Below, piece after piece: positions 300-59,310 of a DNA stretch of 59,310 bases. Every line of letters starts with the position of its first letter. Within the stretch, counting starts at the first letter, position 1. This DNA is from a virus. Lineage: Duplodnaviria; Caudoviricetes. A program made the position numbers and the translations under genes. The notes beneath the pieces are model-generated. The model saw only the letters and a program-made list of their open reading frames with translations, made no database searches and had not been told where the DNA came from. The stretch spans positions 1 to 59,310 of the IMG/VR virus record IMGVR_UViG_3300009161_000051. One strand, 5' to 3'.

Positions 300-581
300 A
301 TGAAAGGTCGTCATCGTAAGGCCGCTGGTGGCATGGTTGAGAAGGGCGTTGTTGCAAATGACGCCTCCCCAACTGATGTTTACTCAGGTTCCGGCTCTAA
401 TGTTGTTAAGGCTGCTAAACAGCGTAAAGCTGGCGGTAAGGTTTCTGGTTTTATGGCTAAGATGCGGTCTGACCGCCCTGCCCGTAAATCTGGCGGTCGC
501 ACAGGTTCAAACATGAACCCGCTGTCGTCTGCTCATGCAGGAACGGAACCAACGGGCCATAAATCAATGGTCAATTGTTAG
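300..581 (+). CDS. Small basic protein with three KxxGG motifs (probable virion-internal protein)
   Basis: GAGG RBS then ATG at 300; KAAGGMV, RKAGGKV, RKSGGRT; homologous to the partial ORF at 59093. Confidence 0.7.
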   Translation: MKGRHRKAAGGMVEKGVVANDASPTDVYSGSGSNVVKAAKQRKAGGKVSGFMAKMRSDRPARKSGGRTGSNMNPLSSAHAGTEPTGHKSMVNC

Positions 582-16227: not shown

Positions 16228-19200
16228 GTGGGTAGCAAGGGTAGCCAAACATCAACCTCAACGTACAAGCCTCCAAAAGAGGTAATGGATAATTACAGGT
16301 ACGTTACAGACCTTGCTAAACAAGTGGCTGCAACTCCTTATGAAAGATATAAAGGTGAGCTTGTTGCCGGAATGACGCCAACCCAAATGGCTGGCATTCA
16401 GAACGTAAACCAAGCTCAGGGAATGGCTCTTCCGTATTATCAAGAAGCTACTTCACTCGCGTCAGATGCGGCTACTGCGGGTGATACAAGGAATTTCAAG
16501 CAAAGCGACATTGATACTTATATGTCTCCTTATTTGAATAATGTCGTTGGTAGCACGATGGCTAACCTTGAGGAGCAGAATAAGCGTCAACGGCAAGACC
16601 TTGTTGGGACAGCTATTTCTCGCGGGGCATTTGGGGGTGATCGGGGCAAAATTGCAGAAGCAGAGTTGAACCGTCAGCAGGGTCTATCTACTGGCAAGAC
16701 ACTGAGCGATCTTCTTCAAGGTGGTTATAGTCAGGCTTTGGGTCAATTTAATCAGGGCATCGCCAATAAGTTCACTGGTGCTGGTCAGATAGCTGGATAC
16801 GGCACAGGCGCACAACAGTCCGTCCTTCAAGGCGCACAGGCTCAGATGGCTGCTGGAGCGCAACAACAGGCTGTACGTCAAGCACAAGACACTGCTAATT
16901 ATCAGCAGTTTCAACAACAACAGGCTTATCCGTTCCAAACATCGCAATACTTGGCTAACATTACTCAGGGTATTGGCGCACAGTCCGGCGGCACAAGCAC
17001 TCAGACCCAACCCGGCCCAAGCATGGGTGGTCAGGTTCTTGGTTTTGCAACAGCAATGGCAGGTATGCCTTGGTCTGATATCCGTCTGAAAGAGAATGTC
17101 GGCGTTATCGGTAAGACCTTTGATGGTCAGCCTATCTACAAATACAACCTTAAAGGTCAAGAACAGACCCAAATTGGTTTGATGGCTCAGGACGTTGAAA
17201 AGCGTAACCCTGATGCTGTTCATCAATATAAAGGGTTCAAGAAGGTTGATTATGATGCAGCTACACATGATGCTGAAAAGCGCGGACACTTTGCGTTTGG
17301 TGGTGTAGTCCCTCGCTACGCTGATGGCGGCAGCATCAATGATATCATCCAGAGCCTTCAGGATTATCAAGAGCCGGGTGCTACACCTTTGCCATATGGG
17401 CAGTACGGTGCGCCTTACGGTTCTAATAAATCACCAATCTTTCCAAAAGAAGCACTCAAGGGATTGGGCGGGATGGGTCGTGGTCAAACACCTGCGGGAG
17501 CGGAGGAGAATTACATTCCTCGTGCGCCTAGGATTCAAGAACAGGAAAGTCCTGTCGATGCTTTGAAAAAAGGTCTACAGGCTATGTCTCCTGCCCAGAC
17601 AGCCAACCTTAAATCTAACATGGGTTCTCTTGGCCTTGGTAGTAAGGGTAAGACGCTGTACACGGCTCCTATTGGGCCAAGCTCTACTGGCGATCCCATG
17701 CAAGCAGGTCTTGTCTCTAAAAAAGACGAGAGCGTACTTGAGCATGGCTTGAACTATTTGTTTCCGTCATTGTTTAAAAATCATGGCGGCGGTGTTGTTG
17801 GTCGCAATCACTATGAAGATGGTGGCGCACCTACATACAAAGTACAACCGCAAAATGTTGAAGATATGCCTCAATATCAACAGGCATTACTACAAGCAAT
17901 TTACGGCCCTGAGAGCGGCGGCAGATACGACATTATGCAGGGCGGAAAAGAAACTTTTGATACTTCTGGGCCTCACCCTAATCGTGTAGCTCAAGGTGGA
18001 GAAAGCACTGCTGCTGGAGCAGGTCAGTTCATCAACAGCACTTGGAATGATGTTACTGGCGGTGCGCCAATGACAAAACCTTATCAAGATGCAGCAACAT
18101 TGGCATTAGCTAAACGCGATTTTAATAGGCGTACAGGACAAGATTTAGACACTGTGTTGCAAGAACAAGGCGTAACACCAGATGTTTTAAAAGCACTGTC
18201 TCCTACTTGGGTAGCACTTGCTAATAAACCTGCTTCAGGAGCGGTTGCAGCGGGTGATATGAGCCGTGGTCCGGGTCTTGTGCCTCCAGATGGAGAAGCA
18301 CAGCCCAGCAGCCTGTTGGAGCGCGTTACAGGCATGAAACTGTCTGAAGAGGCGCGTTCAGGTCTTCTGGCTGCTGGCCTTGGCATGATGGCGTCACGTT
18401 CACCGTTCATGGGCGTTGCTATTGGTGAAGGCGGTCTTGGTGGCTTGCAGACGTATTATAATGCGTTGGCTAACAAACGGGCTGGCGAGAAGCAACAAGC
18501 TGAAACTGAAGTTGCAAAACGCACAGTTGCAGTTTCTGAAGCTGGCGTTCCAATTGAACGGCAACGTGTTGATATTGATCAGAAAGCTAAAAATCTTGAA
18601 GCGTACAAGTTTTGGATTGCTTCATTTGTACCAGTGCCACAAAAAGATGGTAGCATATTATACCGTGATCAATCAGGCCAATTGATAGATGAAAAAACAT
18701 ACCGTGAAAGAATTTCTTCTGCTTTAAACTCATTGGGGTTGGCTCCCTTTGAAGTGAGCACACCAAAATCTAATACATCTACGACTGCCGCAGACTCAGC
18801 ACTGGGAGGTGTCAATAAACCAACTACTGAAGCTCCTACCGCAGGTGGCGTTGTTCCTTCTGCTGTTGAGCCTCCTAAAGAAGTTGTTCAATCTGCTCCT
18901 AAATTTGTCAGGGAAGAAGATTTATTAAATCCTCCGCTTGCGGCAGCTAAAGTTGGTACACAAACAGAAAACGTGCCTGTCAATACACCTAATGAAAAAA
19001 TGGTTATTGATGCGGACAACCCTACTATTCTTGACAGACTTGCTAATGAACAAATGAAAATTATGAAAACATATGAAGATCGTGGTTTAACTGCACCACC
19101 TTCTGCCAAAACTTTGTATGATTCATATGTTGCAAGAAGAACGGCAATTCTTGAAGGAAAACAACCTGTTGAATTTAAAGACGGTACGGCAGGAATATAT

Positions 19201-19941
19201 CCTGCTGTAAAAGAAGCTAAACTTGCTGAAACGGCAGAAACAGAAGCTGCTAAAGCTCTACGAGGTCAAGGAGATAAAATTTTAGCAGAAGCTAACGCAA
19301 GTCGCTCGGCAGCATATTCAATGCAAATGCGTTTGGATGGCATGAGAGAATCTATCAAACAACTTCCTGAAGAAGGATGGTTATCACTGGGATATATGGC
19401 TCCAGAAAGATTAGAAGTTGCTAAAGGGATAAATTTCTTTGGAGCATTTTTGAAAGATTTTACGGGGCGGGAAATTTATGCACCAATTGATCCTCAAGCA
19501 CTAGGTGCGGCTGAAGATGTATTCAAAAATACGTTTAAACTTGCTACTGATATGGCACAGCAATTGGGTCGCGAGCCGGGGTTCATTTTGGAGAGAATTC
19601 AACAAGCTAATCCGGGTATTGAAAATTCAAAAATGGGCTATGATCGCATTGCCGCAGGTATGCAAGCTACAGCTCAATACGCAATTGAAAAAGCTAATTT
19701 TCAAGAAAAATGGTATGACGACCATAAAGGTAACATGAGCGGTTCTGAAACGGCTTTTCACGAGGCCAACCCGCCTGAGAAATATATTAGACTTGCTATT
19801 GTATCGACGATTCCACCTGAAAAAGTAGAAAAATTTGTAAACTATGCTACAAAATTTAAAGGATATGATCTTTCTAAAGCTAAAACTATATTTGACAAAG
19901 AATATGGTAAAGGTGTTTCTGACATAGTATTGGGTAAATAA
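16228..19941 (+). CDS. DNA ejection/internal virion protein with Peptidase S74 and lambda-lysozyme-like domains
   Basis: Q/G/A-rich pilot N-terminus; WSDIRLKEN...IGLMAQDVE...VDY (S74); PESGGRYD...STAAGAGQFINSTW (lysozyme-like). Confidence 0.75.
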   Translation: MGSKGSQTSTSTYKPPKEVMDNYRYVTDLAKQVAATPYERYKGELVAGMTPTQMAGIQNVNQAQGMALPYYQEATSLASDAATAGDTRNFKQSDIDTYMSPYLNNVVGSTMANLEEQNKRQRQDLVGTAISRGAFGGDRGKIAEAELNRQQGLSTGKTLSDLLQGGYSQALGQFNQGIANKFTGAGQIAGYGTGAQQSVLQGAQAQMAAGAQQQAVRQAQDTANYQQFQQQQAYPFQTSQYLANITQGIGAQSGGTSTQTQPGPSMGGQVLGFATAMAGMPWSDIRLKENVGVIGKTFDGQPIYKYNLKGQEQTQIGLMAQDVEKRNPDAVHQYKGFKKVDYDAATHDAEKRGHFAFGGVVPRYADGGSINDIIQSLQDYQEPGATPLPYGQYGAPYGSNKSPIFPKEALKGLGGMGRGQTPAGAEENYIPRAPRIQEQESPVDALKKGLQAMSPAQTANLKSNMGSLGLGSKGKTLYTAPIGPSSTGDPMQAGLVSKKDESVLEHGLNYLFPSLFKNHGGGVVGRNHYEDGGAPTYKVQPQNVEDMPQYQQALLQAIYGPESGGRYDIMQGGKETFDTSGPHPNRVAQGGESTAAGAGQFINSTWNDVTGGAPMTKPYQDAATLALAKRDFNRRTGQDLDTVLQEQGVTPDVLKALSPTWVALANKPASGAVAAGDMSRGPGLVPPDGEAQPSSLLERVTGMKLSEEARSGLLAAGLGMMASRSPFMGVAIGEGGLGGLQTYYNALANKRAGEKQQAETEVAKRTVAVSEAGVPIERQRVDIDQKAKNLEAYKFWIASFVPVPQKDGSILYRDQSGQLIDEKTYRERISSALNSLGLAPFEVSTPKSNTSTTAADSALGGVNKPTTEAPTAGGVVPSAVEPPKEVVQSAPKFVREEDLLNPPLAAAKVGTQTENVPVNTPNEKMVIDADNPTILDRLANEQMKIMKTYEDRGLTAPPSAKTLYDSYVARRTAILEGKQPVEFKDGTAGIYPAVKEAKLAETAETEAAKALRGQGDKILAEANASRSAAYSMQMRLDGMRESIKQLPEEGWLSLGYMAPERLEVAKGINFFGAFLKDFTGREIYAPIDPQALGAAEDVFKNTFKLATDMAQQLGREPGFILERIQQANPGIENSKMGYDRIAAGMQATAQYAIEKANFQEKWYDDHKGNMSGSETAFHEANPPEKYIRLAIVSTIPPEKVEKFVNYATKFKGYDLSKAKTIFDKEYGKGVSDIVLGK

Positions 19942-43324: not shown

Positions 43325-45604
43325 ATGGCTGGACTTGTCCCTAATATCCGCCTCGTAGAAGACGCCCCCCAAGACGTTCCTACTGAAGGAATGGACGTTG
43401 TTGTAGTTGAAAACTCTGATCCAGAGGGCGATAACCTACAATACGATGAAAACGGTAATGTTTTGCGGATTGAACACGATGATGGATCAATCAGCGTGTC
43501 ATTGGACGGGCGTCCTATTAAATCCAACGATAAAGACACGCCGGAAAACTGGTTTGACAATCTTGCCGACGATATGAGCGAGATGGAACTCAGCAGGATT
43601 ACTGAAGACCTTTTGCGAGGCATTGGAGAAGACATAGAGAGCCGCAAGGACTGGATTGAGGACAGAGCGCAGGGATTGCGCCTTCTTGGTCTCAAAATTG
43701 AACTGCCGGGCCTACAGGGTTCCGCAGACGGCGCACCAATTGAAGGCATGAGCAAGATCAGGCATCCGTTGCTTTTAGAAGCCGTGCTGCGTTTTCAAGC
43801 TAATGCGCGTTCTGAGTTACTGCCTACTGACGGGCCTGTTAAAATCAGGAACGACGACACAAACGGTTCACCTGAAGAAGACAAACAAGCTGAAGACTTA
43901 GAAAAAGATTTCAATCATTATCTGACGGTTACGGCTAAAGAGTATTACCCAGATACGGACAAAATGTTGTTTATGCTTGGCTTTGGCGGATCAGCGTTCA
44001 AGAAAGTTTATTTCTGTCCGTTAAGAAATCGTCCTGTATCTGAAACTGTTGATGCGGATGATCTGATTGTAAACAATCAAGCTACTGATCTTGGAAATGC
44101 TCGCCGTATTACGCACAGGATTATGATGCGCCCGTCCGTTGTAAAGCGGATGCAGATCATTGGCGCATATCGTGATTGCGATCTTGGTCAGGCTGTTGCA
44201 AAGACGCCTAATGCAATTCAACAGGAAAAGAACGCACAGCAGGGCATTCAGCAAGATGTAAAATCTTCTGAAGATCGTGATCGTGAGATTTATGAGTGCT
44301 ACTGTGAACTTGATATCCAAGGCTACGAGCATACCATTGATGGTGAGCCTTCAGGTCTTGAAGTCCCATACCGTGTGACGGTTGACGTATCTTCCAAAAA
44401 GATTTTAAGCGTTGTCCGCAATTACGATGAGGATGAAGAACTTCCAGAAGCCAAGACAACATTTGTAAAGTGGGATTTTATCCCCGGTCTAGGTTTCTAC
44501 GGTATTGGTTTGCTTCACATTCTTGGCAATACGACAAATGCCCTGACAGCTACATGGCGTGAGCTTCTTGACGCAGGTATGTACGCAAATTTCCCCGGCT
44601 TCTTGTATGCAAAGGCGAGTGGTCGGCAGAACACAAACATTTTCCGTGTTCCTCCCGGTGGCGGCGCACAGATTGATACGTCAGGTATGCCGATACAACA
44701 GGCTGTCATGCCTTTGCCGTACAAAGAGCCTTCAGGCGCACTGATGCAGTTGTCTGAAAACATGAGCCAATACGGTCAACGTGTTGGTGGTACTGCCGAG
44801 ATGAATGTTGGAGAAGGTCGTCAAGATGCACCTGTTGGAACAACGCTTGCGATCATTGAACAAGCGCAAAAGGTTCTCAACAGCGTTCATAAGCGGATGC
44901 ATTCAGCACAGGCGGATGAGTTTCAACTTCTTGCACAGTGCTTTAGGGAGAACCCAACATCGTTTTGGGAACGCAACAAGCGTCCTGCAAAGAAATGGGA
45001 TGAACAGCAGTTTATAGCTGCTCTTGATAACTATTTGCTTGTTCCACAGGCTGATCCAAATACCGCATCGCACATCCAGCGCGTTATGAAGGTTACTGCT
45101 TTGATACAGTTGGCAAAAGAAGCACCACAGCTTTACAACATTGAAGCTGTCAATAAAGAAGCCTTGATTGCCCTTGGCTGGTCTAATCCTACAAGCCTGT
45201 TGCGTGATCAAGCAGAGCAGACTCCTCCTCCTCCAGAGGAAATGGCAAAGATGGCGGAAGCTCAAGCTAAAATGATTACGGCTCAAGCCAAGATTGCTGA
45301 AGTTCAAAGCGGCGGCGTTGGTGTACCAATGGACCCGGCAAAGGTGCAGATGGAACAGGCTGCAAATGAAGTAAAGCTGGCTGAGATCAAACAGCGTTCT
45401 ATTGATGCACAGTTGGACGCCATGAACCGTAAGCGCGACAGGGAAAGCCGTGAGAGAATCGCTACAGTGAAACTAGCTGAAACTATTGCAGAAAAACCTG
45501 AATCGATGGGCATCATGGACGGGATCATTAAACCTGATATGCTTACTCGTCTTGAAGGAAATGAAGAACCGTTTACACCAAATCCAGATGGCATTGTTAA
45601 GTAA
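43325..45604 (+). CDS. Portal protein (P22-like)
   Basis: 759 aa; HPLLLEAVLRFQA, GSAFKKVY, PGLGFYGIG, APVGTTLA; helical C-terminal barrel. Confidence 0.9.
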   Translation: MAGLVPNIRLVEDAPQDVPTEGMDVVVVENSDPEGDNLQYDENGNVLRIEHDDGSISVSLDGRPIKSNDKDTPENWFDNLADDMSEMELSRITEDLLRGIGEDIESRKDWIEDRAQGLRLLGLKIELPGLQGSADGAPIEGMSKIRHPLLLEAVLRFQANARSELLPTDGPVKIRNDDTNGSPEEDKQAEDLEKDFNHYLTVTAKEYYPDTDKMLFMLGFGGSAFKKVYFCPLRNRPVSETVDADDLIVNNQATDLGNARRITHRIMMRPSVVKRMQIIGAYRDCDLGQAVAKTPNAIQQEKNAQQGIQQDVKSSEDRDREIYECYCELDIQGYEHTIDGEPSGLEVPYRVTVDVSSKKILSVVRNYDEDEELPEAKTTFVKWDFIPGLGFYGIGLLHILGNTTNALTATWRELLDAGMYANFPGFLYAKASGRQNTNIFRVPPGGGAQIDTSGMPIQQAVMPLPYKEPSGALMQLSENMSQYGQRVGGTAEMNVGEGRQDAPVGTTLAIIEQAQKVLNSVHKRMHSAQADEFQLLAQCFRENPTSFWERNKRPAKKWDEQQFIAALDNYLLVPQADPNTASHIQRVMKVTALIQLAKEAPQLYNIEAVNKEALIALGWSNPTSLLRDQAEQTPPPPEEMAKMAEAQAKMITAQAKIAEVQSGGVGVPMDPAKVQMEQAANEVKLAEIKQRSIDAQLDAMNRKRDRESRERIATVKLAETIAEKPESMGIMDGIIKPDMLTRLEGNEEPFTPNPDGIVK

Positions 45605-45613
45605 GAGGTTGCT

Positions 45614-48600
45614 ATGGAAGATTATGATCAGGATATTGCAAATGCCCTGCGTTTAGCACAACCATCAGAAGCAGCTAGAGAAGCACAACGCATACAAGCA
45701 TTCCGAGATCAACAGGCAGCAGACGAGCGTAGGTTTGCTCCTACGATTAACATAAGCAATCAAGGCCAAGTGATGAATGAGGCGCAACGGTATAGACCGA
45801 TGCCTTCAGCCACTGGTGAACCCGTCCAACCTGTCCAACCCGTCCAACCGGGCATGATGGGTCGTGCTTATTCTACAGCAACAGGTGGCAGAAACGCTCA
45901 GGCCGATATGAGCAGTGCTTTAGAAAATTTGCCTCAACCAATGGAATATTTTGATGACGTTGCAAAAGCAGCACGAGAATCAAGTGCATATGCAAAGCAA
46001 GGCATTAATAAAATGGGGGAATCTGGTAACCCTTTCAATCAAGTTGTAGGTGGTGGTGAGTATGCTCTTGGTTCTCTTGGGTATCTAGTTTCCCCTTTTA
46101 CAGGCGCAGTTACAAATTTAGTAACTAATCCGGCTAAAAAAGTTTTTGGTGAACCATTTGCCCAAAGAGCAGACATAGTTGCTAATTTAATAGACCCGTT
46201 TTCTCCAACGGCTTATGTGAAGGCGGGGCTTGCGGCAGCTATCCCTACATTAGCAATGGCTACTATTCCGGCTAAATCTAAAGCGATAGAAACTGCTTTG
46301 CAGGTAGCAAATCAAGCGTCTGATTTAAAAACCCCAGAACAGTTAGCTTTAGAAACAGCGCAAAAAACTGCACCTTTGCCTACACCTGCTTACAATCAGC
46401 CAATAGGCCCATTGTCTCCTCCAGTTGTTCCAAAAGGTTCTTCAGCATCGCAAGCAGTAGATTTGTTAGCTGAGACGCCTAAAGCAGATGCTGATGCTAT
46501 TAGGGCAAATAATCAGGGAACCGGGTTGGTTTACCCTGAAGATGAAGCACTTGAACGGTTAAGACTTAAATTATCACGTAAAGAACCAGCACTTGCTTTG
46601 GGAGAAAAAGCTCAAACCAGTTCTGTTGGCGATCCTTTGAATGAAAGAAGAATTATCCGCGCTCCAAGAGATGCGGAAGGCAACCCAATTGCAGGAAAGC
46701 CTGATTTCACGGTGGGCAAAATTACACCACAAGATTGGGTAAATCGTGCTGAAAGCATGATGAATGATAATGAAATTCAAGAAGCGTCAACGTGGTATGG
46801 AAAAATAAGAAGTATCTTTAACAATTACACAGGTGGTGATTCTGAAAAAACAAATAAATATATGAAGGCTTGGCTTGTAGGGCAGCAAAATGTTGATGTT
46901 GCTGGTTCATTAAAAAATGTGTTTTTACAAGCTGAACAATTTGCTAGAAAAATACCAGAAGCAGAAATGACTGGTGGAGGTATGCCTAACCCAACATATG
47001 CTATCCGTCAGGTTCTTAAAGATGAACCTATTGAATACGGCGTTGGGCAAAAAATTTCTGATTTTGTTGATTCTGCGGAAAATAAACCCGTCAGATCATG
47101 GATGGCAAATCATCCTGATGGCGGGTCGCCTTTTGTCGTTGATGTTCACACTGCAAGAGACACAGGATTGGTTGATCAAAAATTAATCAACCATTTAACT
47201 AAATTAGGATACAACACGGAAGATTTGAAAAATTTAAAACTTGATTTTAGTGATGCAATTTCACCTCAAAAATATGAAAATCGTTCAGAATTTGGGCATG
47301 AAATAACAAATTATTTAAATTCTATTACTTGGAAAGGCAGAAATGATTGGACGCCATTAGAAGTTCAGGCTGTTGGCTGGATGGGGATGACACGTTTAAC
47401 AGCGGATAAAGCAGAAGATGTTGTAAGCGGGTTTGAAAGAAACCTCCGTAGAATTTCTATGGAAGCTGCGCCCGGAGAGGGGTCGCCTATTCATACTTTA
47501 TATAACAACAGATTTAGTGTTTTGTCTTTGCCAGAAAAAGAAACAATTACTCAAAACATTACCAATAAAGCTCTGGAGGATGTGTCAAACCTCGTTGGTA
47601 TTGATTTAAGGTCTATCGCTCATGGATCGGGCGGTTGGAATATGGATATTAACCCATCCAGCGTTGGGCAGGTTTATGCAACTCCACAAGCTGCTCAAAT
47701 GGGTGCAAATATCCTTGGGCATATTTTGCAACAGTCTGAAGTTTGGTCAAATTCAGTAAAACCTTTAACACAAAACCCAAGCAGTTTTGCTATTGATTTT
47801 CTTGAAAATGGCACAACAAATCTACGCGATAATACGCAGCTTGCTGATTTTTGGAGCCGCATTCAAAAAGCAGACCCCGATAAAAAGAAACCTCTTTTTG
47901 TTGGATATCAGCCAATTTCTACACCAGATGGAAGAATTGGTATCCGTGTTTTAATTGATCGTGGTGGAGCAAAATTAGCAGAAACATTGACTTCCGCAAT
48001 TGAAGGGCCGATACAAAAAGAATTAAACAATATAGGATATGATGTTTCTGCTCAGGTGCATGAGGCAGAAATTTACAAAGCACAACATGATTGGAAAGGT
48101 GACCCCAGTGGGCAAAGTTACATTACTGCCGCCAGCAACCTCCTTGGACGAGATTCCACAAGCGATCTCAATAATTTACGGGAAAAATATCAGGAGCAAT
48201 TCCGACAGGAACTTGAGTCCGCAGAAGACAGAACCAAGCGACAAGGAACTTCAACAATTGATCAACAAGGACTACAAGGATCACCAGAAGAGGTATCGCG
48301 CCAAATTGACCAACGTGCCACCGCGCAAAATTACATTGAAGGAAATGCGGGAGCTTTTGAACAAAATTCATCCGATGTTCTGACAAAAGATGTTGGTTCA
48401 GGGCGGAACTTTACCGGGTTTTTTGCAAATATTACTTCTGGACTTACTGGCAAACCAACAACAATGGTTGGTTATAAACCTGCGTTTGATATTTCAAAAA
48501 TCAAACCGTTTTCAGAAGAGTATTTAAAACACATTGGAAATTTTGATGACCATATTGGTTCATCAATTCCCGCTTTTAGAGAAATACAACAGTCCGTTGG

Positions 48601-50806
48601 AAATTCAATTGTAAAAACTTTTGGGGAAGGTGCTAATATGCTTGATATTGGCGCGTCTGAAGGAGCTTTGGCAAAGACAATTACCCAATTAAGCAACGGA
48701 AAAATTAAAACAGTTGCATTAGACCCTAACCCGTCAATGCAAGCGTCATTTAACAATATTTCTCAAGTTCCCGGTTCAGAATACTACCTTGGTGCTTATG
48801 GTCATGCTGATGATGAAGGTAAAGTAGCTTGGACAGAAGACGCTATTCTTAAAGACAAAAACGGTGTTGATAGGGATAATCCACACGCAAATATAGACAT
48901 TCCTTATTACGCCCCTGATAGAAAATTTAATGTTGTCCATGAAGCAATGGTTTTTCAATTTATGAACAACAATCGTTCTGCTCAAATACAACGCGCAAAA
49001 GAACTTATGGAACCTAATGGTATTTTAATTTTAGAAGAAAAATTTATTCACGGCGACGGCTTAAATTTAGAAGAATTTTTGGCAAATGAAGTTAAAAAAG
49101 ATGCTTACAAAGAGCAATTTTTTACCCGTGAAGATATTGAAAGAAAACGCCAAGCTATTCTAAGCGGGAAAGAAGATGAATTTGTTGAAGGAGAAAAAGC
49201 AAAAGAAGCAGCCGTTGTTGGAATGCATGATTTGCAAGTTTCTCCCGGACATATTGAAAATGAATTAAAAAAGAATTTTAAAGTTGTTACACAATTTTGG
49301 GATAGTGGAAATTTCAAAGGCTATGTAGCATCAGATGATCCTGCTACATTGTCTCGTTTTTTAGCTAATATGCCATCTACAAACAGTGAATATTCTACAA
49401 TTCAAACACCAAGAATGGTTACGTCTCAAAGTAAAACACTTAATTCTCGTATTGATATGCCTCACAAAGATATTATGGCTCGCGATAAAGTTTTAGAAGA
49501 TAACGTATTAAAATTAACAAATAACGAGATTACCCCTGAGCAATGGGATGCGTTAGTTAATGAAAGAAAACCTGTTGAGCCATACTCAATGGATAGAATT
49601 CCTGTACCTGCAACACCAGAACAGGCTATCAATGCTTTAAACAAAGACAAAAAAGAAAAATATGGTTTAACGGATCAATATTACAAAGAAGGTGACCCCG
49701 TTAAACTACGATTGGATATTCCTGCTTATGAATATTATAGCACATGGGTTAATGCTATCCATGATGGAAGGTCTGGCGACGGGAAAAACCCTACTACCTA
49801 TAGCAGCGTAAGCGCGGCAACTAATGTTGAATTTGATGTATCCAAAACAGGATCAATGAAAACAGCAAAAGGAGGCAGCAAAGCCCCATATGCAACTATG
49901 AGCGGCAAATACAAGTCTGTAACGCCTGAAGAAGCATATGCTAAAGCTCAACAGTACTTTAATGATCCGCAATGGGTTCAAATTGGTATGGACCCAACAC
50001 GGCATTCTTTCTTTTATACCCGTGAAGGCATGAAGCCTGTTACAAGTGCGGAAGAAGTCCTTCAGATAGGCCCATTGGTTTTTGCAAAAAATCCAACTTA
50101 CGGCAACAGGGCTAATTATAAATTTAACCAAGGCGGTCGTGTAGGGTATGATAACGGCGGTGGAACTGGGCAAGGAATAGCCGCAGATTACATAAGCAAA
50201 GCACTTATGGCTGCTCTTCAAGGAACACAAGATGCTCCCGGCATAGCTGCGACACACGCTGGAGATTATGCAACAGAAGTTGCGGCTCAACATTTGGGTG
50301 CATTGCCTGAAGTCGCGCATGGCGTATTTGCAAATTTGCCTGAAGCTGCTAAAGGAGAACTTCTTTCAAGACCAACATTAGGCATTGATTGGTGGAATGA
50401 ATTTTTTAAAGAACAAGGTTTGCAAAGCCACCAAGTAGACCCAATGGTGCATGATTTAGCATTAGCTACAGCAATTCTTTCTCCAATTTCCGATACATTA
50501 AAATTAGGAACTAAAGCAGCGGAAATTGGCATTGAATCTGTTCCAGTTGTACAAAAACTTATAGCTCCCGCTAAAGAAATTAAACATTTTCCAATAGGAA
50601 CAAGCCATCCTAAAGTTGAAACAATAGCTCATGGTCTTGCAAAAACGGAAAAAGCGGGAACTAAAGTTGGTTATGGTTTAACAGCAAATGCTGAATTAAA
50701 TCCACAATCATACGGCCCACCTGAAGGCCAAGTTAGTGCAACCCATCATGCCCGTGGTGGTTCAGTTGACCATGCGCTACAGTTAGCGCATTATTACAGT
50801 AATTGA
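45614..50806 (+). CDS. Large polyvalent (probably packaged) protein with HhH-glycosylase-like and CmoA-like SAM-dependent domains
   Basis: WY..; GQKISDF; VVDVHTAR; EVQAVGW; FDDHIGSSIP..MLDIGASEG..VFQFM..PNGILILEEK..GNF; C-terminal GG motifs. Confidence 0.7.
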   Translation: MEDYDQDIANALRLAQPSEAAREAQRIQAFRDQQAADERRFAPTINISNQGQVMNEAQRYRPMPSATGEPVQPVQPVQPGMMGRAYSTATGGRNAQADMSSALENLPQPMEYFDDVAKAARESSAYAKQGINKMGESGNPFNQVVGGGEYALGSLGYLVSPFTGAVTNLVTNPAKKVFGEPFAQRADIVANLIDPFSPTAYVKAGLAAAIPTLAMATIPAKSKAIETALQVANQASDLKTPEQLALETAQKTAPLPTPAYNQPIGPLSPPVVPKGSSASQAVDLLAETPKADADAIRANNQGTGLVYPEDEALERLRLKLSRKEPALALGEKAQTSSVGDPLNERRIIRAPRDAEGNPIAGKPDFTVGKITPQDWVNRAESMMNDNEIQEASTWYGKIRSIFNNYTGGDSEKTNKYMKAWLVGQQNVDVAGSLKNVFLQAEQFARKIPEAEMTGGGMPNPTYAIRQVLKDEPIEYGVGQKISDFVDSAENKPVRSWMANHPDGGSPFVVDVHTARDTGLVDQKLINHLTKLGYNTEDLKNLKLDFSDAISPQKYENRSEFGHEITNYLNSITWKGRNDWTPLEVQAVGWMGMTRLTADKAEDVVSGFERNLRRISMEAAPGEGSPIHTLYNNRFSVLSLPEKETITQNITNKALEDVSNLVGIDLRSIAHGSGGWNMDINPSSVGQVYATPQAAQMGANILGHILQQSEVWSNSVKPLTQNPSSFAIDFLENGTTNLRDNTQLADFWSRIQKADPDKKKPLFVGYQPISTPDGRIGIRVLIDRGGAKLAETLTSAIEGPIQKELNNIGYDVSAQVHEAEIYKAQHDWKGDPSGQSYITAASNLLGRDSTSDLNNLREKYQEQFRQELESAEDRTKRQGTSTIDQQGLQGSPEEVSRQIDQRATAQNYIEGNAGAFEQNSSDVLTKDVGSGRNFTGFFANITSGLTGKPTTMVGYKPAFDISKIKPFSEEYLKHIGNFDDHIGSSIPAFREIQQSVGNSIVKTFGEGANMLDIGASEGALAKTITQLSNGKIKTVALDPNPSMQASFNNISQVPGSEYYLGAYGHADDEGKVAWTEDAILKDKNGVDRDNPHANIDIPYYAPDRKFNVVHEAMVFQFMNNNRSAQIQRAKELMEPNGILILEEKFIHGDGLNLEEFLANEVKKDAYKEQFFTREDIERKRQAILSGKEDEFVEGEKAKEAAVVGMHDLQVSPGHIENELKKNFKVVTQFWDSGNFKGYVASDDPATLSRFLANMPSTNSEYSTIQTPRMVTSQSKTLNSRIDMPHKDIMARDKVLEDNVLKLTNNEITPEQWDALVNERKPVEPYSMDRIPVPATPEQAINALNKDKKEKYGLTDQYYKEGDPVKLRLDIPAYEYYSTWVNAIHDGRSGDGKNPTTYSSVSAATNVEFDVSKTGSMKTAKGGSKAPYATMSGKYKSVTPEEAYAKAQQYFNDPQWVQIGMDPTRHSFFYTREGMKPVTSAEEVLQIGPLVFAKNPTYGNRANYKFNQGGRVGYDNGGGTGQGIAADYISKALMAALQGTQDAPGIAATHAGDYATEVAAQHLGALPEVAHGVFANLPEAAKGELLSRPTLGIDWWNEFFKEQGLQSHQVDPMVHDLALATAILSPISDTLKLGTKAAEIGIESVPVVQKLIAPAKEIKHFPIGTSHPKVETIAHGLAKTEKAGTKVGYGLTANAELNPQSYGPPEGQVSATHHARGGSVDHALQLAHYYSN

Positions 50807-50819
50807 TTAGGAGAGCGGT

Positions 50820-51335
50820 ATGGGTTTGTTTGATTCAATGTTTGGCGGCGGCGGCGGAGATAATGCAAATTATATCGGCGGCTCAGACATGGGTGGCTAT
50901 ACGGGTTCAGGTAATAACCAAAACACATACGGCCCCGGCGGCAACTTGAGCAAAGAAGATTATAAAGAGCAATATGGCGGCAATGATAACAAAAATAACA
51001 ATAATCAAAACAATAACCAAAACAACAACAAACCAGCAGAACCAGTAGCTGATCCATATGTTGCCCCAGTATATGTCCCTCAAGAGGCATACACGCCGCC
51101 GCCACAGGCTGAATATGAATCACTTGGTGCAGTTCCTGCCGGGAACGCAAAGATGTCCTATCAGTCTTCTCCGGGGGTTGTATCAAAAAAATCTCTTGAA
51201 ATGGCCCGTGGAGGACAAGTTCATGGCAATGATGTTTCTGATATAGCCATAAGATTGGCAAAATTAATAATGGAAGAAATGAAATCTGATCCATTGTTTG
51301 AACGGAAGATTCAGAGTATCTTATCAAAAATGTAA
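50820..51335 (+). CDS. Low-complexity (Asn-rich) protein with GG motif
   Basis: AGGAG RBS; NNNNQNNNQNNN; MARGGQV..DVSDIAIRLA. Confidence 0.55.
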   Translation: MGLFDSMFGGGGGDNANYIGGSDMGGYTGSGNNQNTYGPGGNLSKEDYKEQYGGNDNKNNNNQNNNQNNNKPAEPVADPYVAPVYVPQEAYTPPPQAEYESLGAVPAGNAKMSYQSSPGVVSKKSLEMARGGQVHGNDVSDIAIRLAKLIMEEMKSDPLFERKIQSILSKM

Positions 51336-51364
51336 CTGCAATATTGCAGCTAAGGAGCAGGTCT

Positions 51365-53791
51365 ATGCATGAATATCTTAAAGCGGCTCGTTCCGGTGCT
51401 GCAAAACGTCTAAAAACAATTGCGACTGAAAAATCTCAAAAAGTTGACTCTTCTACATGGTCTCCAGCACCTGAATTGGAAGCTGGCAAGAAAACAGGTA
51501 TGCGACCCATCAGCAAACGGGCTTTTAAGTCTGGTGGCAAGGTAGTTGGCAAGATTGCTAAAGTACGTGCAGATCGTGTTGCACGGAAGAGCGGCGGCAA
51601 AGTTACATCAGAGCAGCCTCCTGTAGATCGGTACATCAACCGCGATCTTAAAAAGGCAAATGATTATCGTGAAGGCGGTGACAGCCACGTTGGTGCTTTA
51701 AAGAGCGGTGGCAGAACAAAGAAAGATATTGGCGGCGGGATGCCGTTTGAAGGTGCTAATACTGGTATTCCAGTTGGGCGCGGTAATGCCAAATTTCTTA
51801 ATACAGGCTTGAAGCGTGGTGGAGCAGCTAAAAAGAATGCAGGTGGACCACTTTTGGCTGGACCAGCATCACCAGAGATGATGGCTAAAAGATACGCCAC
51901 AGGCCCATCAGCGGTAGTTGCTCCTAATGCTCCACCTCGTAAGTTGGGCGGTCGTGCAAATAAAGCAAACGGTGGCTCAACTGATGAATTCATTAATCGT
52001 CAGGTAAAAAGATCAGAAGACGAGGAAGTGAAATTCCCTAAGAATGTTCCTTTGCCTCGTCCTCGTCCAAAGTCTTTGGATGCTTCCGAGTATCGTTACA
52101 AAGGTCCAAAGCGTGATCTTCCTAAGCCCGGTCTGCCCGGATACAAGAAGGGTGGCAAAGCTAATTGGGAAGGTTCTGCAAAGGATGAAGCGCAGGACAA
52201 GAAACTTGCAGCCAAGCGCGGCATTTCCATGAAGCAATGGGAAGCGTCCAAGGCTGACGACAAGCATGATTCTCAACAGTCCATGAAGGGGTTGAAGAAG
52301 GGTGGTCGCATTGATAAAGAAGATGGTGGGCCAATTCATCATTTTAGATTAAACTTGCAAAATGGTAAAGATAAAAGGACTCAAAATCTTTCATTTGGTG
52401 GAGAATCTCCAGCAGATGCGCTTATTAATAGAATTAAATTTGCAAATGCAGGTGGTTGGGACGTTACTGGAGCAAAACATACGGGGAGCTATGTTGGGGA
52501 TAAAAAATCAGCGGGGAGTAGTGCTGGTTTAATGAAGAAGGGCGGTCGCGCTCACAAAGCTGGCGGTGGAATGAATGAGCAAGCAAAGATGGCTATGATC
52601 ATTGCAAATGACCCCCATAGCAAACGGGATAAAATTGCGGGTTTCTTGCCACCTTCTACAAGAACATCTCTTAGCCTCCCTAGTTTGGAAAGCGGTGCTT
52701 CTAAAATGTCTGTTAAAAAAGCTCATGGCGGTCGCGCTCACAAGGCAAGTGGCGGTCTTAGTGAATTTGGTCAGGCCTTTAAGGAGGGTCGTGCCGCAAT
52801 GCTTGCAGGTGGCCCAAAGACGTTTGAGTACAATGGCAAGATGTATAATACAAACCTTGCCAAGCCATCTGAGGCGGGTAATCCACCTCGTCGCGGCGTT
52901 CCAAATCCACCTTCTGCAACAGAACGCTCGTACCGTGATCTTGAAAATACAACGGCAAAGAACAAAGCAAATTTTGAATATTCTAAACGAGTGGATGAAG
53001 TTGCCAAGGGTGTAGATGAGGCAGCAAAAAAAAGAAATGAAGAATCTGTAGCTCAAAATTACAGAAATAATTTAGCAGCAGCGGGTAAAACTGCTATAGA
53101 AAAACAAAGGGATCGTAGCAGTCAGGCAGATACTTCTTCTCCTCTGGCTCCTGCCACAGGATCAATGACTGGCCAAGTTGCTGATCCAACGACCATCCGT
53201 CGTCAATCAGGTCAACGGTCTTACATTCCGGGTATCCGTATGGGCGATCCTCGTCTTGGTGAACCAGCAATGGTCTTTGGGGGTGAGAAGCGTGGTGGAC
53301 GTATTGAAAAACGTGCAAAGCGCAAAGATGGCGGCAAAGTTTTCACTGGTGGTTCATACCCTAACAAGATTCCCGGCGTTGTTCCCGGCGGTCGCGTCAC
53401 TCGTGCTGAAGGCGGCGCAGTTGGCAAGAAGGGTGGCACCAACATAAACATCATCATCTCGCCTAAGTCTCCAGATCAGGGTCTTGGCGGAATGCCTCCT
53501 ATGCCTATGGATGCTGGCCCACCTCCTATGCCTCCTATGATGCCTCCAGAGGCTGGTCCGCCTCCAATGGGCGGTGGCATTGATCCTAACGTGTTGGCGA
53601 TGTTGGCTGCTAAGGGTGGCGGCGGTGGCCCTCCTCCAATGGGTGGCCCAATGATGCCTCCTCCCGGCGCACCTCCTATGATGCGTAAATCGGGTGGTCG
53701 CACTACATATCCAATCACAACAGCTTCTGGTGGTGGCAACGCTAGGCTTGAAAAAGTTCCTGCGTATGGGCTGAAACAGCCGACGTTCTAA
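51365..53791 (+). CDS. Basic polyprotein-like virion protein with about 19 KxxGG motifs
   Basis: AAGGAG RBS before MHEYLK; repeated [FLRYMK]KxGG and KxxGG; Pro/Met-rich C-terminus. Confidence 0.7.
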   Translation: MHEYLKAARSGAAKRLKTIATEKSQKVDSSTWSPAPELEAGKKTGMRPISKRAFKSGGKVVGKIAKVRADRVARKSGGKVTSEQPPVDRYINRDLKKANDYREGGDSHVGALKSGGRTKKDIGGGMPFEGANTGIPVGRGNAKFLNTGLKRGGAAKKNAGGPLLAGPASPEMMAKRYATGPSAVVAPNAPPRKLGGRANKANGGSTDEFINRQVKRSEDEEVKFPKNVPLPRPRPKSLDASEYRYKGPKRDLPKPGLPGYKKGGKANWEGSAKDEAQDKKLAAKRGISMKQWEASKADDKHDSQQSMKGLKKGGRIDKEDGGPIHHFRLNLQNGKDKRTQNLSFGGESPADALINRIKFANAGGWDVTGAKHTGSYVGDKKSAGSSAGLMKKGGRAHKAGGGMNEQAKMAMIIANDPHSKRDKIAGFLPPSTRTSLSLPSLESGASKMSVKKAHGGRAHKASGGLSEFGQAFKEGRAAMLAGGPKTFEYNGKMYNTNLAKPSEAGNPPRRGVPNPPSATERSYRDLENTTAKNKANFEYSKRVDEVAKGVDEAAKKRNEESVAQNYRNNLAAAGKTAIEKQRDRSSQADTSSPLAPATGSMTGQVADPTTIRRQSGQRSYIPGIRMGDPRLGEPAMVFGGEKRGGRIEKRAKRKDGGKVFTGGSYPNKIPGVVPGGRVTRAEGGAVGKKGGTNINIIISPKSPDQGLGGMPPMPMDAGPPPMPPMMPPEAGPPPMGGGIDPNVLAMLAAKGGGGGPPPMGGPMMPPPGAPPMMRKSGGRTTYPITTASGGGNARLEKVPAYGLKQPTF

Positions 53792-54435: not shown

Positions 54436-54828
54436 ATGCCGTACATGAGAATGCATCATGCGGAAGACCCAAAGCAGATGATCATGAAAGAATTCAGCGA
54501 TATCAACAATATTGAGGTTTTCAACACAAGCATCATTGTAGCGATCTATGTCCGCCCGGATACGACCAAGAGCGGGATCGTTCTGCCCGGTCAGACACGG
54601 GATGAGGACAAATATCAAGGAAAAGTCGGTCTTGTTGTCAAAAAAGGCAACTTGGCTTTTGTCGATGACAACGAGACTTGGTTCAAAGATGTTTCAGTTG
54701 ATGTTGGGGATTGGGTTTATTTCCGTCCTTCTGAAGGCTGGGCAATGACAATTCATGGCGTTCTTTGCCGTGTGTTGAGAGACGTAGACGTGCGTGGAAA
54801 GATTTCAGCACCAGATGAGGTTTGGTAA
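54436..54828 (+). CDS. GroES-like co-chaperonin
   Basis: TKSGIVLP...VGLVVKKG..AF...VDVGDWV. Confidence 0.8.
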   Translation: MPYMRMHHAEDPKQMIMKEFSDINNIEVFNTSIIVAIYVRPDTTKSGIVLPGQTRDEDKYQGKVGLVVKKGNLAFVDDNETWFKDVSVDVGDWVYFRPSEGWAMTIHGVLCRVLRDVDVRGKISAPDEVW

Positions 54829-56998: not shown

Positions 56999-57913
56999 AT
57001 GGCTGTTAATCTCTCAGCAATTAAAGACCTTTTGCTCCCCGGTCTACGTGGAGTTGAAGGCAAGTACGAGATGATCCCATCTCAGTACGACAAGATGTTC
57101 ACCAAGCATGAGTCAAAGATGGCTCTTGAGCGTACTGCTGAAATGCGGTTCCTCGGCTTGGCACAGTTGAAAACAGAAGGCGGTCAGACCGCTTTTGATA
57201 ACAGTGCTGGTGAGCGGTACATCTACAATCAGGAGCATACTGAAATTGCTCTCGGTTACGCGATTACCCGCAAAGCCATCGACGATAATCTGTATAAGAC
57301 ACAGTTTATGCCGTCCAACCTCGGCCTGATTGAATCCTTTCAGCAAACCAAGGAAATTTACGGTGCAAACATTCTTAATACAGCTACGACGTATAATTCC
57401 TCAATTGGCGGTGACGGTGTTGCACTTTGCTCCACGGCGCATCCTATTGACGGAAGTACAGTTGCTAATACACCAAGCGTTCAACTTGATCTCAATGAAG
57501 CATCGCTCCTTAACAGTATGATAGGTGTGCGGACAAACTTCAAAGATCAGGCTGGCCTGAAGGTATTTGCCCGTGCGCGTAAGCTCATTGTCCCGCCACA
57601 GCTTGAACCAGTTGCTATCCGTCTTACAAAGACAGAACTGCGTCCGGGTACAGCAGATAATGATGTTAATGCCATAATGATGTCTTCCGGCGGTCTGCCA
57701 GAAGGTTACATGGTTAATGACTTCTTGACCTCTGCGTATGCTTGGTTCTTGCTGACCAACATCGACGGTCTGTCGTATATGGAACGTGTGGCCTTTGAAA
57801 CCGACATGCAGGTCGATTTTGTTACAGATAACCTTCTTGTCAAGGGCTATGAGCGTTACTCGTTTGGTTACTATAACTGGCGTTCAATCTTTGGCTCGTT
57901 CCCAACATCGTAA
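56999..57913 (+). CDS. Major capsid protein
   Basis: LLPGL..; HTEIALGYAIT..AIDDNLY; GGDGVALCSTAHP; KLIVPPQL; ERYSFG..NWR.IFGS. Confidence 0.9.
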   Translation: MAVNLSAIKDLLLPGLRGVEGKYEMIPSQYDKMFTKHESKMALERTAEMRFLGLAQLKTEGGQTAFDNSAGERYIYNQEHTEIALGYAITRKAIDDNLYKTQFMPSNLGLIESFQQTKEIYGANILNTATTYNSSIGGDGVALCSTAHPIDGSTVANTPSVQLDLNEASLLNSMIGVRTNFKDQAGLKVFARARKLIVPPQLEPVAIRLTKTELRPGTADNDVNAIMMSSGGLPEGYMVNDFLTSAYAWFLLTNIDGLSYMERVAFETDMQVDFVTDNLLVKGYERYSFGYYNWRSIFGSFPTS

Positions 57914-57931: not shown

Positions 57932-59083
57932 ATGGCTATTTCAGCATTCTCCGGTCCCGTAATTTCTTTTGGTCAGAACACCATTGGAACTACAACGGAT
58001 TACAATCCACAATTAGGCCCGTCGCTCTTCTGGGGCGGCGTTGGTCGCCTTGATCCTCGTCCTAATTTTGCTTACATCCCCGGTCAGAACTACGGTGCAT
58101 TTACCGCTGGTTTTGCAACGTCGGATACTCAGACCATCAGTGCTACTCCTTATGCGCTTGGTTCTGCTGCAATCGCAGCAGCCGCAGCAACTACGGCTAG
58201 CACAGCTATGACGCTTGTTTCAACAAACTCAACGTCAACAGGTGTCTCAATTAGCGCATCGTGCATCAACTATAATACTGGTGCAACGGTGACTGGCCTT
58301 TTGCTTCTTGATGGTTTTGCATCCTTCACGGGTGTGGTAGCAAGCAGCATCTTGACCGTATCGTCCCTGACTGGGGTTATTACGATTGGGATGACCTTGA
58401 CTGGCACTGGCGTTAATTCTGGTACTACTGTTGTAAATCAGCTTACTGGGCCTCCCGGTGGTGCTGGAACTTATACGGTACAAGGTGACGATACTGTTGG
58501 TTCCACGACTATAACGGGACAAGCAGCTTTAGGGCCAACCGCATTTGGGCAGCCTTTCAGCGATACTAATTCCGTTTATCTCTGGAACCCACAGGCTCTT
58601 GTTTCTCGCGCAGTGAGTATTGTTCCGGTTTCTGGTACATCAACGGCGGCAGTTATCTTTACTGTTTCTGGTTACGACATTTATGGCGTACCAATGAGTG
58701 AAGCAATTACTGTTCCAACAAGCACGACGACAGCTACTACTACCAAGGGCGCAAAAGCGTTTAAGTATATTGCTTCTGTAACACCTAGTGTTACAAATGC
58801 AATTACTTATAGCGTTGGTACAACCGACATCTATGGTCTTCCAATTCGTTCTGATAACTTTGGCGATTTAGCGATCAACTACAACGCCACAGGTATTACG
58901 GCGAGTACGGGGTACGTCGCGGCAGTGACCACAAGTCCTGCAACGACGACTACAGGTGACGTTCGTGGAACGTATGCATTACAATCGGCGGCAGACGCTT
59001 CCAAGCGGCTTGTTGTTCGTCAATTTGTAACCCCAGCCAATATGGGTTCCATCACGGGCCTGTTCGGTGTAACCCAAGCATAG
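57932..59083 (+). CDS. Virion structural protein (T/S/G/A-rich)
   Basis: MAISAFSGPV start after the MCP; beta-rich. Confidence 0.65.
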   Translation: MAISAFSGPVISFGQNTIGTTTDYNPQLGPSLFWGGVGRLDPRPNFAYIPGQNYGAFTAGFATSDTQTISATPYALGSAAIAAAAATTASTAMTLVSTNSTSTGVSISASCINYNTGATVTGLLLLDGFASFTGVVASSILTVSSLTGVITIGMTLTGTGVNSGTTVVNQLTGPPGGAGTYTVQGDDTVGSTTITGQAALGPTAFGQPFSDTNSVYLWNPQALVSRAVSIVPVSGTSTAAVIFTVSGYDIYGVPMSEAITVPTSTTTATTTKGAKAFKYIASVTPSVTNAITYSVGTTDIYGLPIRSDNFGDLAINYNATGITASTGYVAAVTTSPATTTTGDVRGTYALQSAADASKRLVVRQFVTPANMGSITGLFGVTQA

Positions 59084-59092
59084 GAGTAAGCC

Positions 59093-59310
59093 ATGAAGGG
59101 CCATAAGCACAACTACGGAACCGCTGTTCATCACGAACATCCACGGGCCGAACATAAGAAGGGTGGCAAGGTTAATTCTGAGCATCCTATGGAAGGCCAT
59201 TTTGACAACGACGAAGCACCTAAAGAAGTTTATGCGGGTGCTGGTTCTAAAGTTGTAAAAGAAGCTGAAGAGAAAAAGCACGGCGGCAAGGTCCATAAGG
59301 CCCGTGCCAA
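59093..59310 (+). CDS. Partial small basic protein with KxxGG motifs (homologue of 300..581)
   Basis: AGGAG RBS; HKKGGKV, NDEAPKEVYAGAGSKVVK, KKHGGKV. Confidence 0.65.
   Translation, partial: MKGHKHNYGTAVHHEHPRAEHKKGGKVNSEHPMEGHFDNDEAPKEVYAGAGSKVVKEAEEKKHGGKVHKARA

Follow-up and report, generated by a model that had tools for sequence, protein, structure and literature searches.

The 59,310-nucleotide stretch of DNA analysed here (the window) is the virus record IMGVR_UViG_3300009161_000051 (Duplodnaviria; Caudoviricetes), and one of its genes (51365..53791, + strand) codes for a basic, Gly/Lys/Ala/Pro-rich protein of 808 amino acids (aa), which is referred to here as P0001. As judged from profile searches, P0001 is a member of a large, viral and previously uncharacterised protein family. 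Most members of this family carry a repeated GG-x6-GG unit, and comparison of the orthologues supports a cassette-like architecture, in which a conserved frame holds short modules that differ from one relative to the next. The functional reading that we favour, which we put forward tentatively and with a little less than an even chance of its being correct, is that P0001 would be a multivalent internal adaptor that is ejected, with the GG-x6-GG motif serving as a docking signal. In this regard P0001 may be similar to the T7 proteins gp6.7 and gp7.3, but it should not be interpreted as a homologue of them.

The P0001-like family and its GG-x6-GG unit

The open reading frame (ORF) for P0001, as indicated by a Shine-Dalgarno box (AAGGAG; 51352..51357, + strand, 7 nt ahead of the ATG at 51365) and by orthologues that begin with the same MHEYL residues, is a real gene, with its stop at 53791. 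The protein contains 117 Gly, 88 Lys, 86 Ala and 73 Pro residues, and it has a pI of 10.3 and a net charge of +70. Based on an ESM Atlas model (pLDDT 0.46, pTM 0.18) and on composition, viz. a mean hydropathy of 0.407, which is lower than the Uversky boundary of 0.444, and a 66% share of disorder-promoting residues, P0001 is predicted to be intrinsically disordered. No Pfam, PHROG or NCBIfam model matched P0001, and PDB sequence searches gave nothing significant for this protein, for the 189-aa and 198-aa head ORFs or for a 1730-aa ORF located upstream. The relatives that an Atlas search gave for the 189-aa ORF were all viral clusters with no name.

When 1.84 billion cluster representatives were searched by HMMER, relatives of P0001 were identified in 910 clusters at E<=1e-3 and in 599 clusters at E<=1e-10 (154-853 aa). 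Among the 75 longest members that were scanned, none matched a Pfam family, and the PHROG matches for 75 members were limited to five families, all of unknown function and each seen in 1-5 members. A detectable orthologue is present in one record of the phage collection (MW202675.1; 382 aa), where it is mis-named 'yenB', and literature searches covering main texts revealed no paper describing the family or its motif and no virion proteomics for a phage bearing it. P0001 contains the N-terminal core of the family (KTGMRPxS and K-x-GG-K-V sites, which are near-invariant columns in the family alignment), its C-terminal frame (a TNINIII-type segment, a Pro/Met-rich stretch and RKxGGR...GRLEK) and six copies of the GG-[KR]-x5-GG unit. 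At least one copy of this unit is found in 177 of the 184 family members and at least two copies in 154 of them. The more general GGx6GG pattern occurs 557 times across 151 family sequences, and the family logo takes the form [LMFY]-K-x-G-G-R-[AT]-x-[KR]-x-x-G-G, with R at position +1 in 80% of the instances, K/R at +4 in 82% and K at -2 in 58%. A spacing of six residues between GG dipeptides was seen 457 times family-wide, compared with at most 181 times for every other spacing.

Within P0001 itself, all seven of the GG-x6-GG units that had been listed in the original prediction were found. These units, all on the + strand and given here with their preceding residues where noted, are (LKS)GGRTKKDIGG (aa 115; 51707..51736), (LKR)GGAAKKNAGG (aa 152; 51818..51847), (RKL)GGRANKANGG (aa 195; 51947..51976), (LKK)GGRIDKEDGG (aa 313; 52301..52330), (MKK)GGRAHKAGGG (aa 393; 52541..52570), (KAH)GGRAHKASGG (aa 455; 52727..52756) and GGRVTRAEGG (aa 675; nt 53387), and they fit the pattern [LMFY]-K-x-GG-R-x-x-[KR]-x-x-GG. 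An eighth GG-x6-GG, at aa 752, is located inside a Gly/Pro run and is probably spurious. In comparison with a null model consisting of 5000 composition-preserving shuffles of P0001, GGx6GG was observed 8 times against a shuffle mean of 0.35 (maximum 4), GG[KR]x5GG 6 times against a mean of 0.06, and [KR]xGG[KR] 10 times against a mean of 0.5, and for all three patterns the observed count was reached by none of the 5000 shuffles. The six-residue GG-GG spacing occurs 8 times in P0001, and each of the other spacings from 0 to 14 at most 3 times. The original prediction had also counted about 19 basic-x-x-GG motifs, which is a loose figure. The strict form [KR]xxGG gives 13 overlapping matches, K/R is located exactly at -3 in 11 of the 32 GG runs, and K/R is present anywhere from -3 to -1 in 22 of the 32. 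At the DNA level, the 17-nt sequence reported as identical at 52541 and 52727 (viz. the first 17 nt of the fifth and sixth units) was recovered, with 2 matches versus 0.02 expected, and this identity forms part of a 38-nt repeat present in 4 copies, which exhibit 61-100% identity.

Conserved frame and exchangeable modules

The related loci that were compared were picked by the similarity of their capsid proteins (~91% identical), and a locus described as close is thus close in its capsid gene only. Of the 183 relatives of P0001, ~160 cover aa 1-120, ~80 cover aa 260-320 and 45-76 cover aa 660-800, whereas only 11-31 cover aa 322-500 and only 2 cover aa 501-640. The conserved N-terminal core (aa 1-125; 51365..51739, + strand, as are all of the segments that follow) contains KTGMRPIS, two K-S-GG-K-V sites and the first GG-x6-GG unit, and it is present in ~160 of the 183 relatives. 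Module A (EGSAKDEAQDKKLAAKRGISMKQWE...; 52148..52300) is shared by ~80 of the 183, an ALIKKMVK module being found in its stead in others. Next comes a hypervariable insert region (aa 322-640; 52328..53284), where the modules differ by relative. It includes the HHFRLNLQ module (15-31 relatives), the MNEQAKMAMIIANDPH module (~14-17 relatives), module D (FGQAFKEGR...KTFEYNGKMYNT; ~11-12 relatives) and, at aa 501-640, the stretch that is limited to 2 relatives. Beyond the insert, the orthologue alignment delineates a conserved module formed by GGKVFTGGSYPNKIPGVVP and the seventh unit (53327..53416), a conserved KKGGTNINIIISP segment (53426..53464), a Pro/Met-rich low-complexity stretch (53486..53683) and the conserved C-terminal signature RKSGGRT...GGGNARLEK (53684..53788).

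The 33 complete orthologues from the IMG/VR loci picked by capsid protein are 334-614 aa long and contain 0-6 units each, and in them recurring short modules are flanked by an N-terminal core and a C-terminal part that both stay constant. At one site two alternative modules occur, viz. EGSAKDEAQDKKLAKK... or ...ALIKKMVKP..., and other modules include KWIQ..HPGALHK, LYANI.AKQERIA and FG.AFK.GR...KTFEY.GKMYNT, the last of which is also found in P0001. The order of the modules is mostly collinear, with the orthologues differing by presence or absence, but the A and D modules are found in both orders (in 2 versus 3 proteins), the order being N-A-M-D in P0001 and N-D-A in locus L029. The orthologues thus retain the linker motif while the intervening segments vary in number and identity, and the cassette-like array proposed in the original prediction is supported by these alignments. 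A search for stand-alone short proteins with module D gave a single candidate, by a method that is limited by its word index. One of the modules absent from P0001 (KWIQ.AIKHPG.LHK...IPAKKL; L060 aa 223-278 and L034 aa 256-273) shows a sub-threshold match to PF25632, the family of fusellovirus VP2, which is a virion DNA-binding protein; the two orthologues score 16.2 and 15.1 bits (E 0.014 and 0.032), lower than the gathering cut-off of 27, and P0001 has no match to this family.

The frame that remains when the modules are set aside is ~180 aa long and consists of an N-terminal basic segment with GG sites, the TNINIII-type segment, the Pro/Met-rich stretch and the C-terminal RKxGGR...GRLEK, and in the metagenome relatives 150-650 aa of short modules are held between its two halves. 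A frame-only gene of 150-200 aa is found in the assemblies of Rhizobium sp. BK316, R. lusitanum, a Rhizobiales isolate, a Boseaceae bacterium and Acidisoma. It carries two basic-x-GG-R-V sites, a TTVNVIVAS segment (the form that the KKGGTNINIIISP segment takes in the Rhizobium elements), a Pro/Met-rich stretch and AGAGSGxGRLEK, and when it was compared with the family profile by hhalign a probability of 99.1% (E 1.2e-18) was obtained over the C-terminal 97 aligned columns. In the syntenic head block of these isolates the frame-only gene directly follows the portal gene, and it is followed in turn by GroES, scaffold, two ORFs and a capsid protein that is 72-76% identical. The isolate head blocks (L106, L108, L114, L107, L105 and L109) are located on contigs of between 28 kb and 882 kb, and they look like prophages or prophage-like relatives of a lineage that is otherwise known only from metagenomes. 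A Pro/Met-rich stretch (...MPDEMPPMPMDPNQG...) similar to that of P0001 is also present in gp71 of roseophage CRP-901 (L087 9355-9720), a separate small ORF located between portal and GroES, and other lineages may therefore encode parts of the frame as genes of their own.

The borders of the modules were examined with respect to the GG sites. In an alignment of the fairly close orthologues L026, L072 and L027, three large indels start and stop exactly at GG sites. A larger set, consisting of 48 pairs at >=70% identity, yielded 102 unique indels of >=20 aa, and for 30 of these a GG run is found no more than 2 aa from each of the two ends, compared with 6% for random placement. After near-identical events were collapsed, both ends were within 3 aa of a GG run in 43 of 101 indels, versus 8.9 +/- 2.8 at random (none of 2000 placements reached 43), and with basic-x-GG in place of a GG run the count was 18, versus 3.0 +/- 1.7. 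A looser test on all pairs at >=45% identity showed a modest enrichment (a full unit lay no more than 3 aa from one end in 39% versus 24%) and is superseded by these tests on close pairs. The original prediction had the cargo segments exchanged by recombination at the linker DNA, and for this the indel junctions provide weak support. A few junctions (4 of 41, compared with 1.2% by chance) exhibit microhomology of >=6 nt, but the median microhomology is 1 nt. We read these observations as suggesting that GG-bracketed modules are tolerated as units, with occasional motif-to-motif recombination.

Distribution of the motif and its possible role

In the related loci, the motif is present at 198 sites in 18,239 aa of the family genes (10.9 per 1000 aa), at 10 sites in 36,200 aa of the upstream ORFs (0.28 per 1000 aa) and at 23 sites in 99,917 aa of the downstream ORFs (0.23 per 1000 aa), and shuffled controls give 0 to 0.11 sites per 1000 aa. 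All of the downstream matches are in one small basic ORF (73-197 aa) just past the capsid genes, and all of the upstream matches are in ORFs, mostly large, that are located between the portal and P0001 genes. The upstream matches are either of the form GGR[VI]GYxxGG or consist of a C-terminal F-K-R-GG-[KR]-[VA] followed by an ...AL.L... tail. The motif was not found in the portal, GroES, scaffold or capsid proteins of the related loci.

Within the window, the 1730-aa ORF (45614..50806, + strand) contains GGRVGYDNGG (50132-50161) and a C-terminal ARGGSV...ALQLA tail from 50750, and the 171-aa ORF that follows it (50820..51335, + strand) contains ARGGQV (51204-51221) and then a predicted amphipathic tail. 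The larger of these two has a CmoA-like SAM methyltransferase stretch at aa ~975-1200 (TIGR00740 E 7.7e-7, which is far below the cut-off; PHROG 4752 E 2e-14). It is also extremely variable, only 4 related loci showing a match, with ~13% of it covered. A small basic ORF of 93 aa (300..578, + strand) is a paralogue of P0001 aa 45-87 with three basic-x-GG sites, and a diverged second copy of it begins at 59093 and runs off the end of the window. Motifs of this kind are also seen in more distant phages. In pelagiphage HTVC027P, gp47 (112 aa, between portal and GroES) contains KVGGRVSKMGGG and YKKGGSV, and its profile matches that of the family at the motif only, with a probability of 12.6%; the large pre-portal proteins of HTVC027P and phage 023Pt contain GGRIGY / GGRVGFFMGG and end in ...ASGG / ...ARGG. 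No such motif was found in the first 45 kb (+ strand) of SU10, nor in-frame in the scanned regions of Caulobacter phage RW and roseophage CRP-901, which have related portals.

When non-homologous proteins that presumably form one class share a short peptide whose individual positions are conserved, this is the signature of either a docking signal or a processing site. Of these, docking is favoured because no protease family was found in the ORFs scanned, because the best-conserved positions come after the GG, with a second GG at a set spacing among them, and because many of the inter-motif segments are very short. Docking to the capsid is plausible in view of the restricted distribution of the motif. 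From the position of its gene, its composition and the annotations of its neighbours we infer that P0001 is packaged in the head and ejected with the DNA; the annotated neighbours (a peptidase M15 between the portal and the orthologue in MW202675.1, and a LysM protein in CRP-901) resemble ejection proteins. The motif would then be a short recognition loop, by which a class of proteins docks to a common partner inside the procapsid or in the portal-tail channel, the candidate partners being the scaffold, the portal/core, the capsid interior and the DNA end. With 2-8 copies of the motif, P0001 would act as a flexible multivalent adaptor, and its variable modules may represent passenger peptides or host-specific fittings, which could be gained and lost since they are bracketed by flexible GG motifs.

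The closest parallels for such a role are provided by T7. According to PMC11784390, two short loops of gp6.7 bridge the portal barrel, gp14 and gp15. The C-terminal loop of gp7.3 (residues 84-98) is attached to the nozzle, with K84/K85 in contact with the DNA end, and the basic N-terminal remainder is seen as unresolved density around the DNA. In the sequence of gp7.3, residues 84-98 come directly after a GG. Similar to P0001, both T7 proteins are basic and contain Gly; they are mostly unresolved in the virion, and their genes are located just upstream of the portal gene. Further, the end of gp7.3 (...AGG-KK...GGGINI) recalls the basic-x-GG...GGTNINIII of P0001. However, the T7 proteins are 88-99 aa in length, no modular architecture is known for them, and their sequences have no GG-x6-GG unit in repeated form.

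Several points weigh against an ejected internal adaptor. The placement of P0001 among the internal proteins is drawn from gene position and composition, and homology to T7 gp7.3 was rejected, as hhalign of the family profile gave a probability of 0.5%. In SU10, whose portal and adaptor models match, the ejection genes are found after the tail genes and not after the portal; therefore synteny is no safe guide, and the argument from SU10 synteny for internal-protein status was dropped. Docking and its candidate partners are proposed from the sequence. Divergence of the head block is general, its proteins other than the capsid protein being ~50% identical among the loci, and P0001 is therefore special only in its module turnover. 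Lastly, the location of indel ends next to GG is partly an alignment effect, as gaps tend to abut conserved anchors, and the events share ancestry and are not fully independent.

Other systems share parts of the proposed logic. In the T4 internal proteins and the P1 Dar proteins, short peptide signals load unrelated proteins into the head for injection, and the 1730-aa ORF resembles P1 DarB in having a methyltransferase-like stretch. However, the T4 capsid targeting sequence is located at the extreme N-terminus and is cut off by the prohead protease, whereas the motif in P0001 is internal and repeated, with no sign of removal, and no prohead protease was found in the ORFs scanned. The carboxysome protein CsoS2 and the cargo-loading peptides of encapsulins follow the same logic, in which a disordered basic protein or a Gly-rich peptide binds the shell interior many times, and the HK97 fold is common to encapsulin shells and the capsid proteins of phages. 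It will be incorrect to interpret this as a sequence relation, as the likeness is pure analogy and the binding of P0001 to the capsid is a proposal. By extension of these analogies, the GG-R motif could represent a portable cargo-loading code for the tailed-phage head, by which whatever protein bears it would be docked to the inside of the procapsid, with P0001 as its multivalent hub and as a carrier of fast-exchanged injected mini-effectors that tune the phage to host defences; this bolder version is, in our view, unlikely.

The processing alternative, which was part of the original prediction, is that P0001 is a packaged polyprotein cut after GG by a phage or host protease, which would free short basic peptides and small cargo domains and trim the C-terminal tails of the large neighbours. 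The occurrence of the motif in non-homologous proteins of one presumed class fits processing as well as docking, each module is bracketed by motifs, and several of the large upstream ORFs end in a short amphipathic tail that follows a basic-x-GG and could be a removable targeting peptide. Core proteins of adenovirus and African swine fever virus (ASFV) are likewise basic with Gly-Gly sites, and they are virion-internal, as is presumed for P0001; in them the sites undergo GG-X processing. However, the residue pattern around GG in those proteins is unlike that of P0001. The consensus of the adenovirus protease is (M/I/L)-x-G-G, whereas in the family logo a hydrophobic residue is at P5 and Lys (58%) at P4. 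The presence of R at +1, K/R at +4 and a second GG six residues on is unusual for a site that is read mainly upstream, as these conserved positions are downstream of the supposed scissile bond. Cleavage would also give rise to many tiny peptides, a tenth of the inter-motif segments being 17 aa or shorter. No clan-CE or other processing protease was detected in sequence scans of the phage ORFs. Of the 19 head and tail proteins with full tables, none shows a protease family, nor is one present among the families listed for 51 ORFs (25 of 30 for Pfam and 25 of 77 for PHROG), where unseen weak matches are possible, and the sole peptidase-named match is a Peptidase_S74 fibre chaperone. A protease of novel fold or a host enzyme is possible, but the cleavage claim of the original prediction is not upheld by these results, and we consider it improbable.

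A similarly low probability is given to P0001 being a DNA-binding internal protein, in which the GG-R-x-x-K units would act as backbone clamps of the AT-hook or RGG type, so that the protein coats or organises the packaged DNA or its leading end and enters the cell with it. The high pI and net charge of P0001 are in accordance with such a role, as is the contact with the DNA end that the T7 source describes for the lysines directly after GG in gp7.3, whose basic tail surrounds the DNA; there is also the weak, below cut-off resemblance to fusellovirus VP2 of the one orthologue module that P0001 lacks. However, charge alone requires neither the strict six-residue spacing nor the conserved hydrophobic residue at -3, and the versions of the motif in the large neighbours (GGRVGYDNGG, GGRVGFAQGG and GGRVGFFMGG) are not basic, which leaves their common core unexplained by DNA binding. 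Least probable, and indeed very unlikely, is that the motif copies are functionless relics of internal duplication in a tolerant, unstructured linker protein, since, although motif number rises with the length of the family proteins (r = 0.63), direct GGRAKK repeats flank some of the indels and a 38-nt repeat family is present inside the gene, the motif is conserved position by position in 177/184 members, in phages whose other head proteins are ~50% identical, in non-homologous proteins and in distant pelagiphages, and its peptide pattern has been retained although most copies are diverged at the DNA level (61-76% identity).

The virus record, its host and the significance of the family

The record is a complete 59,310-bp virus genome (CheckV 100%), which encodes large and small terminase subunits, a portal and adaptor of the SU10 type, replication genes, a GroES homologue, a scaffold-like protein and a capsid protein. 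The gene order is portal (43325-45604), the 1730-aa ORF, the 171-aa ORF, the P0001 gene, two small ORFs, GroES (54436-54828), scaffold, two ORFs and capsid protein (56999-57913). The placement of the P0001 gene between the portal and the GroES/scaffold/capsid genes, as originally described, is thus right, but the portal is not adjacent, as the 1730-aa and 171-aa ORFs intervene. In a family scan of the ORFs of the window, host-like regulators, viz. matches to GcrA, to the C-terminal domain of RNA polymerase alpha and to the DnaA C-terminal domain, were identified, which hint at an alphaproteobacterial host, and relatives of the portal are found in SAR11, Roseobacter and Caulobacter phages. Based on the GcrA-like gene, the relatives in Rhizobiales isolates and the portal relatives, the host is probably an alphaproteobacterium.

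The capsid protein is ~91% identical across 81 related loci, and its top 120 database relatives are all >=90% identical, whereas the portal, GroES, scaffold and two pre-capsid ORFs are only 46-59% identical among the same loci. The capsid gene is either unusually constrained or has been swept across the lineage. In public metagenomes, 7,596 of the 8,000 candidates examined are relatives of the capsid protein at E<=1e-10. The ends of the record (1-520 and 58790-59310) are diverged copies of one another, with 79% column identity, and both copies span the 3' end of a 383-aa gene and the small basic ORF. These copies could have arisen if two strain variants were joined into a chimera when a circular or terminally redundant genome was closed, or they could be a real diverged terminal duplication. 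Elsewhere in the window, a 190-aa protein (15065-15637), to which the original prediction had pointed, contains the basic-x-GG sites KADGGS, FAKGGV and SRGGEV and an internal duplication of a G..YVIP..V motif, and its N-terminal 46 aa match PHROG 2423, which is of unknown function. A 1237-aa protein (16228-19941) contains GGRYDIMQGG and has an ejection-protein-like N-terminus (PHROG 4287), followed by a Peptidase_S74 intramolecular-chaperone domain at aa 283-331 and then ~900 more residues, which is an odd place for this domain.

The lineage to which this phage belongs is abundant in public metagenomes, yet it carries a gene family of at least 910 clusters that has been without any annotation. 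If the motif is a docking or loading signal, then it would constitute a short and portable tag by which proteins could be brought into phage heads, and docking would also explain how a block of head genes tolerates a hot spot of module turnover without broken assembly. If, instead, the motif is a cleavage site, then GG-directed core processing would occur in a tailed phage that has no recognisable protease. The minimal versions of the frame are present in assemblies titled as Rhizobium strains, which should be culturable, and both docking and cleavage would then be testable at the bench.

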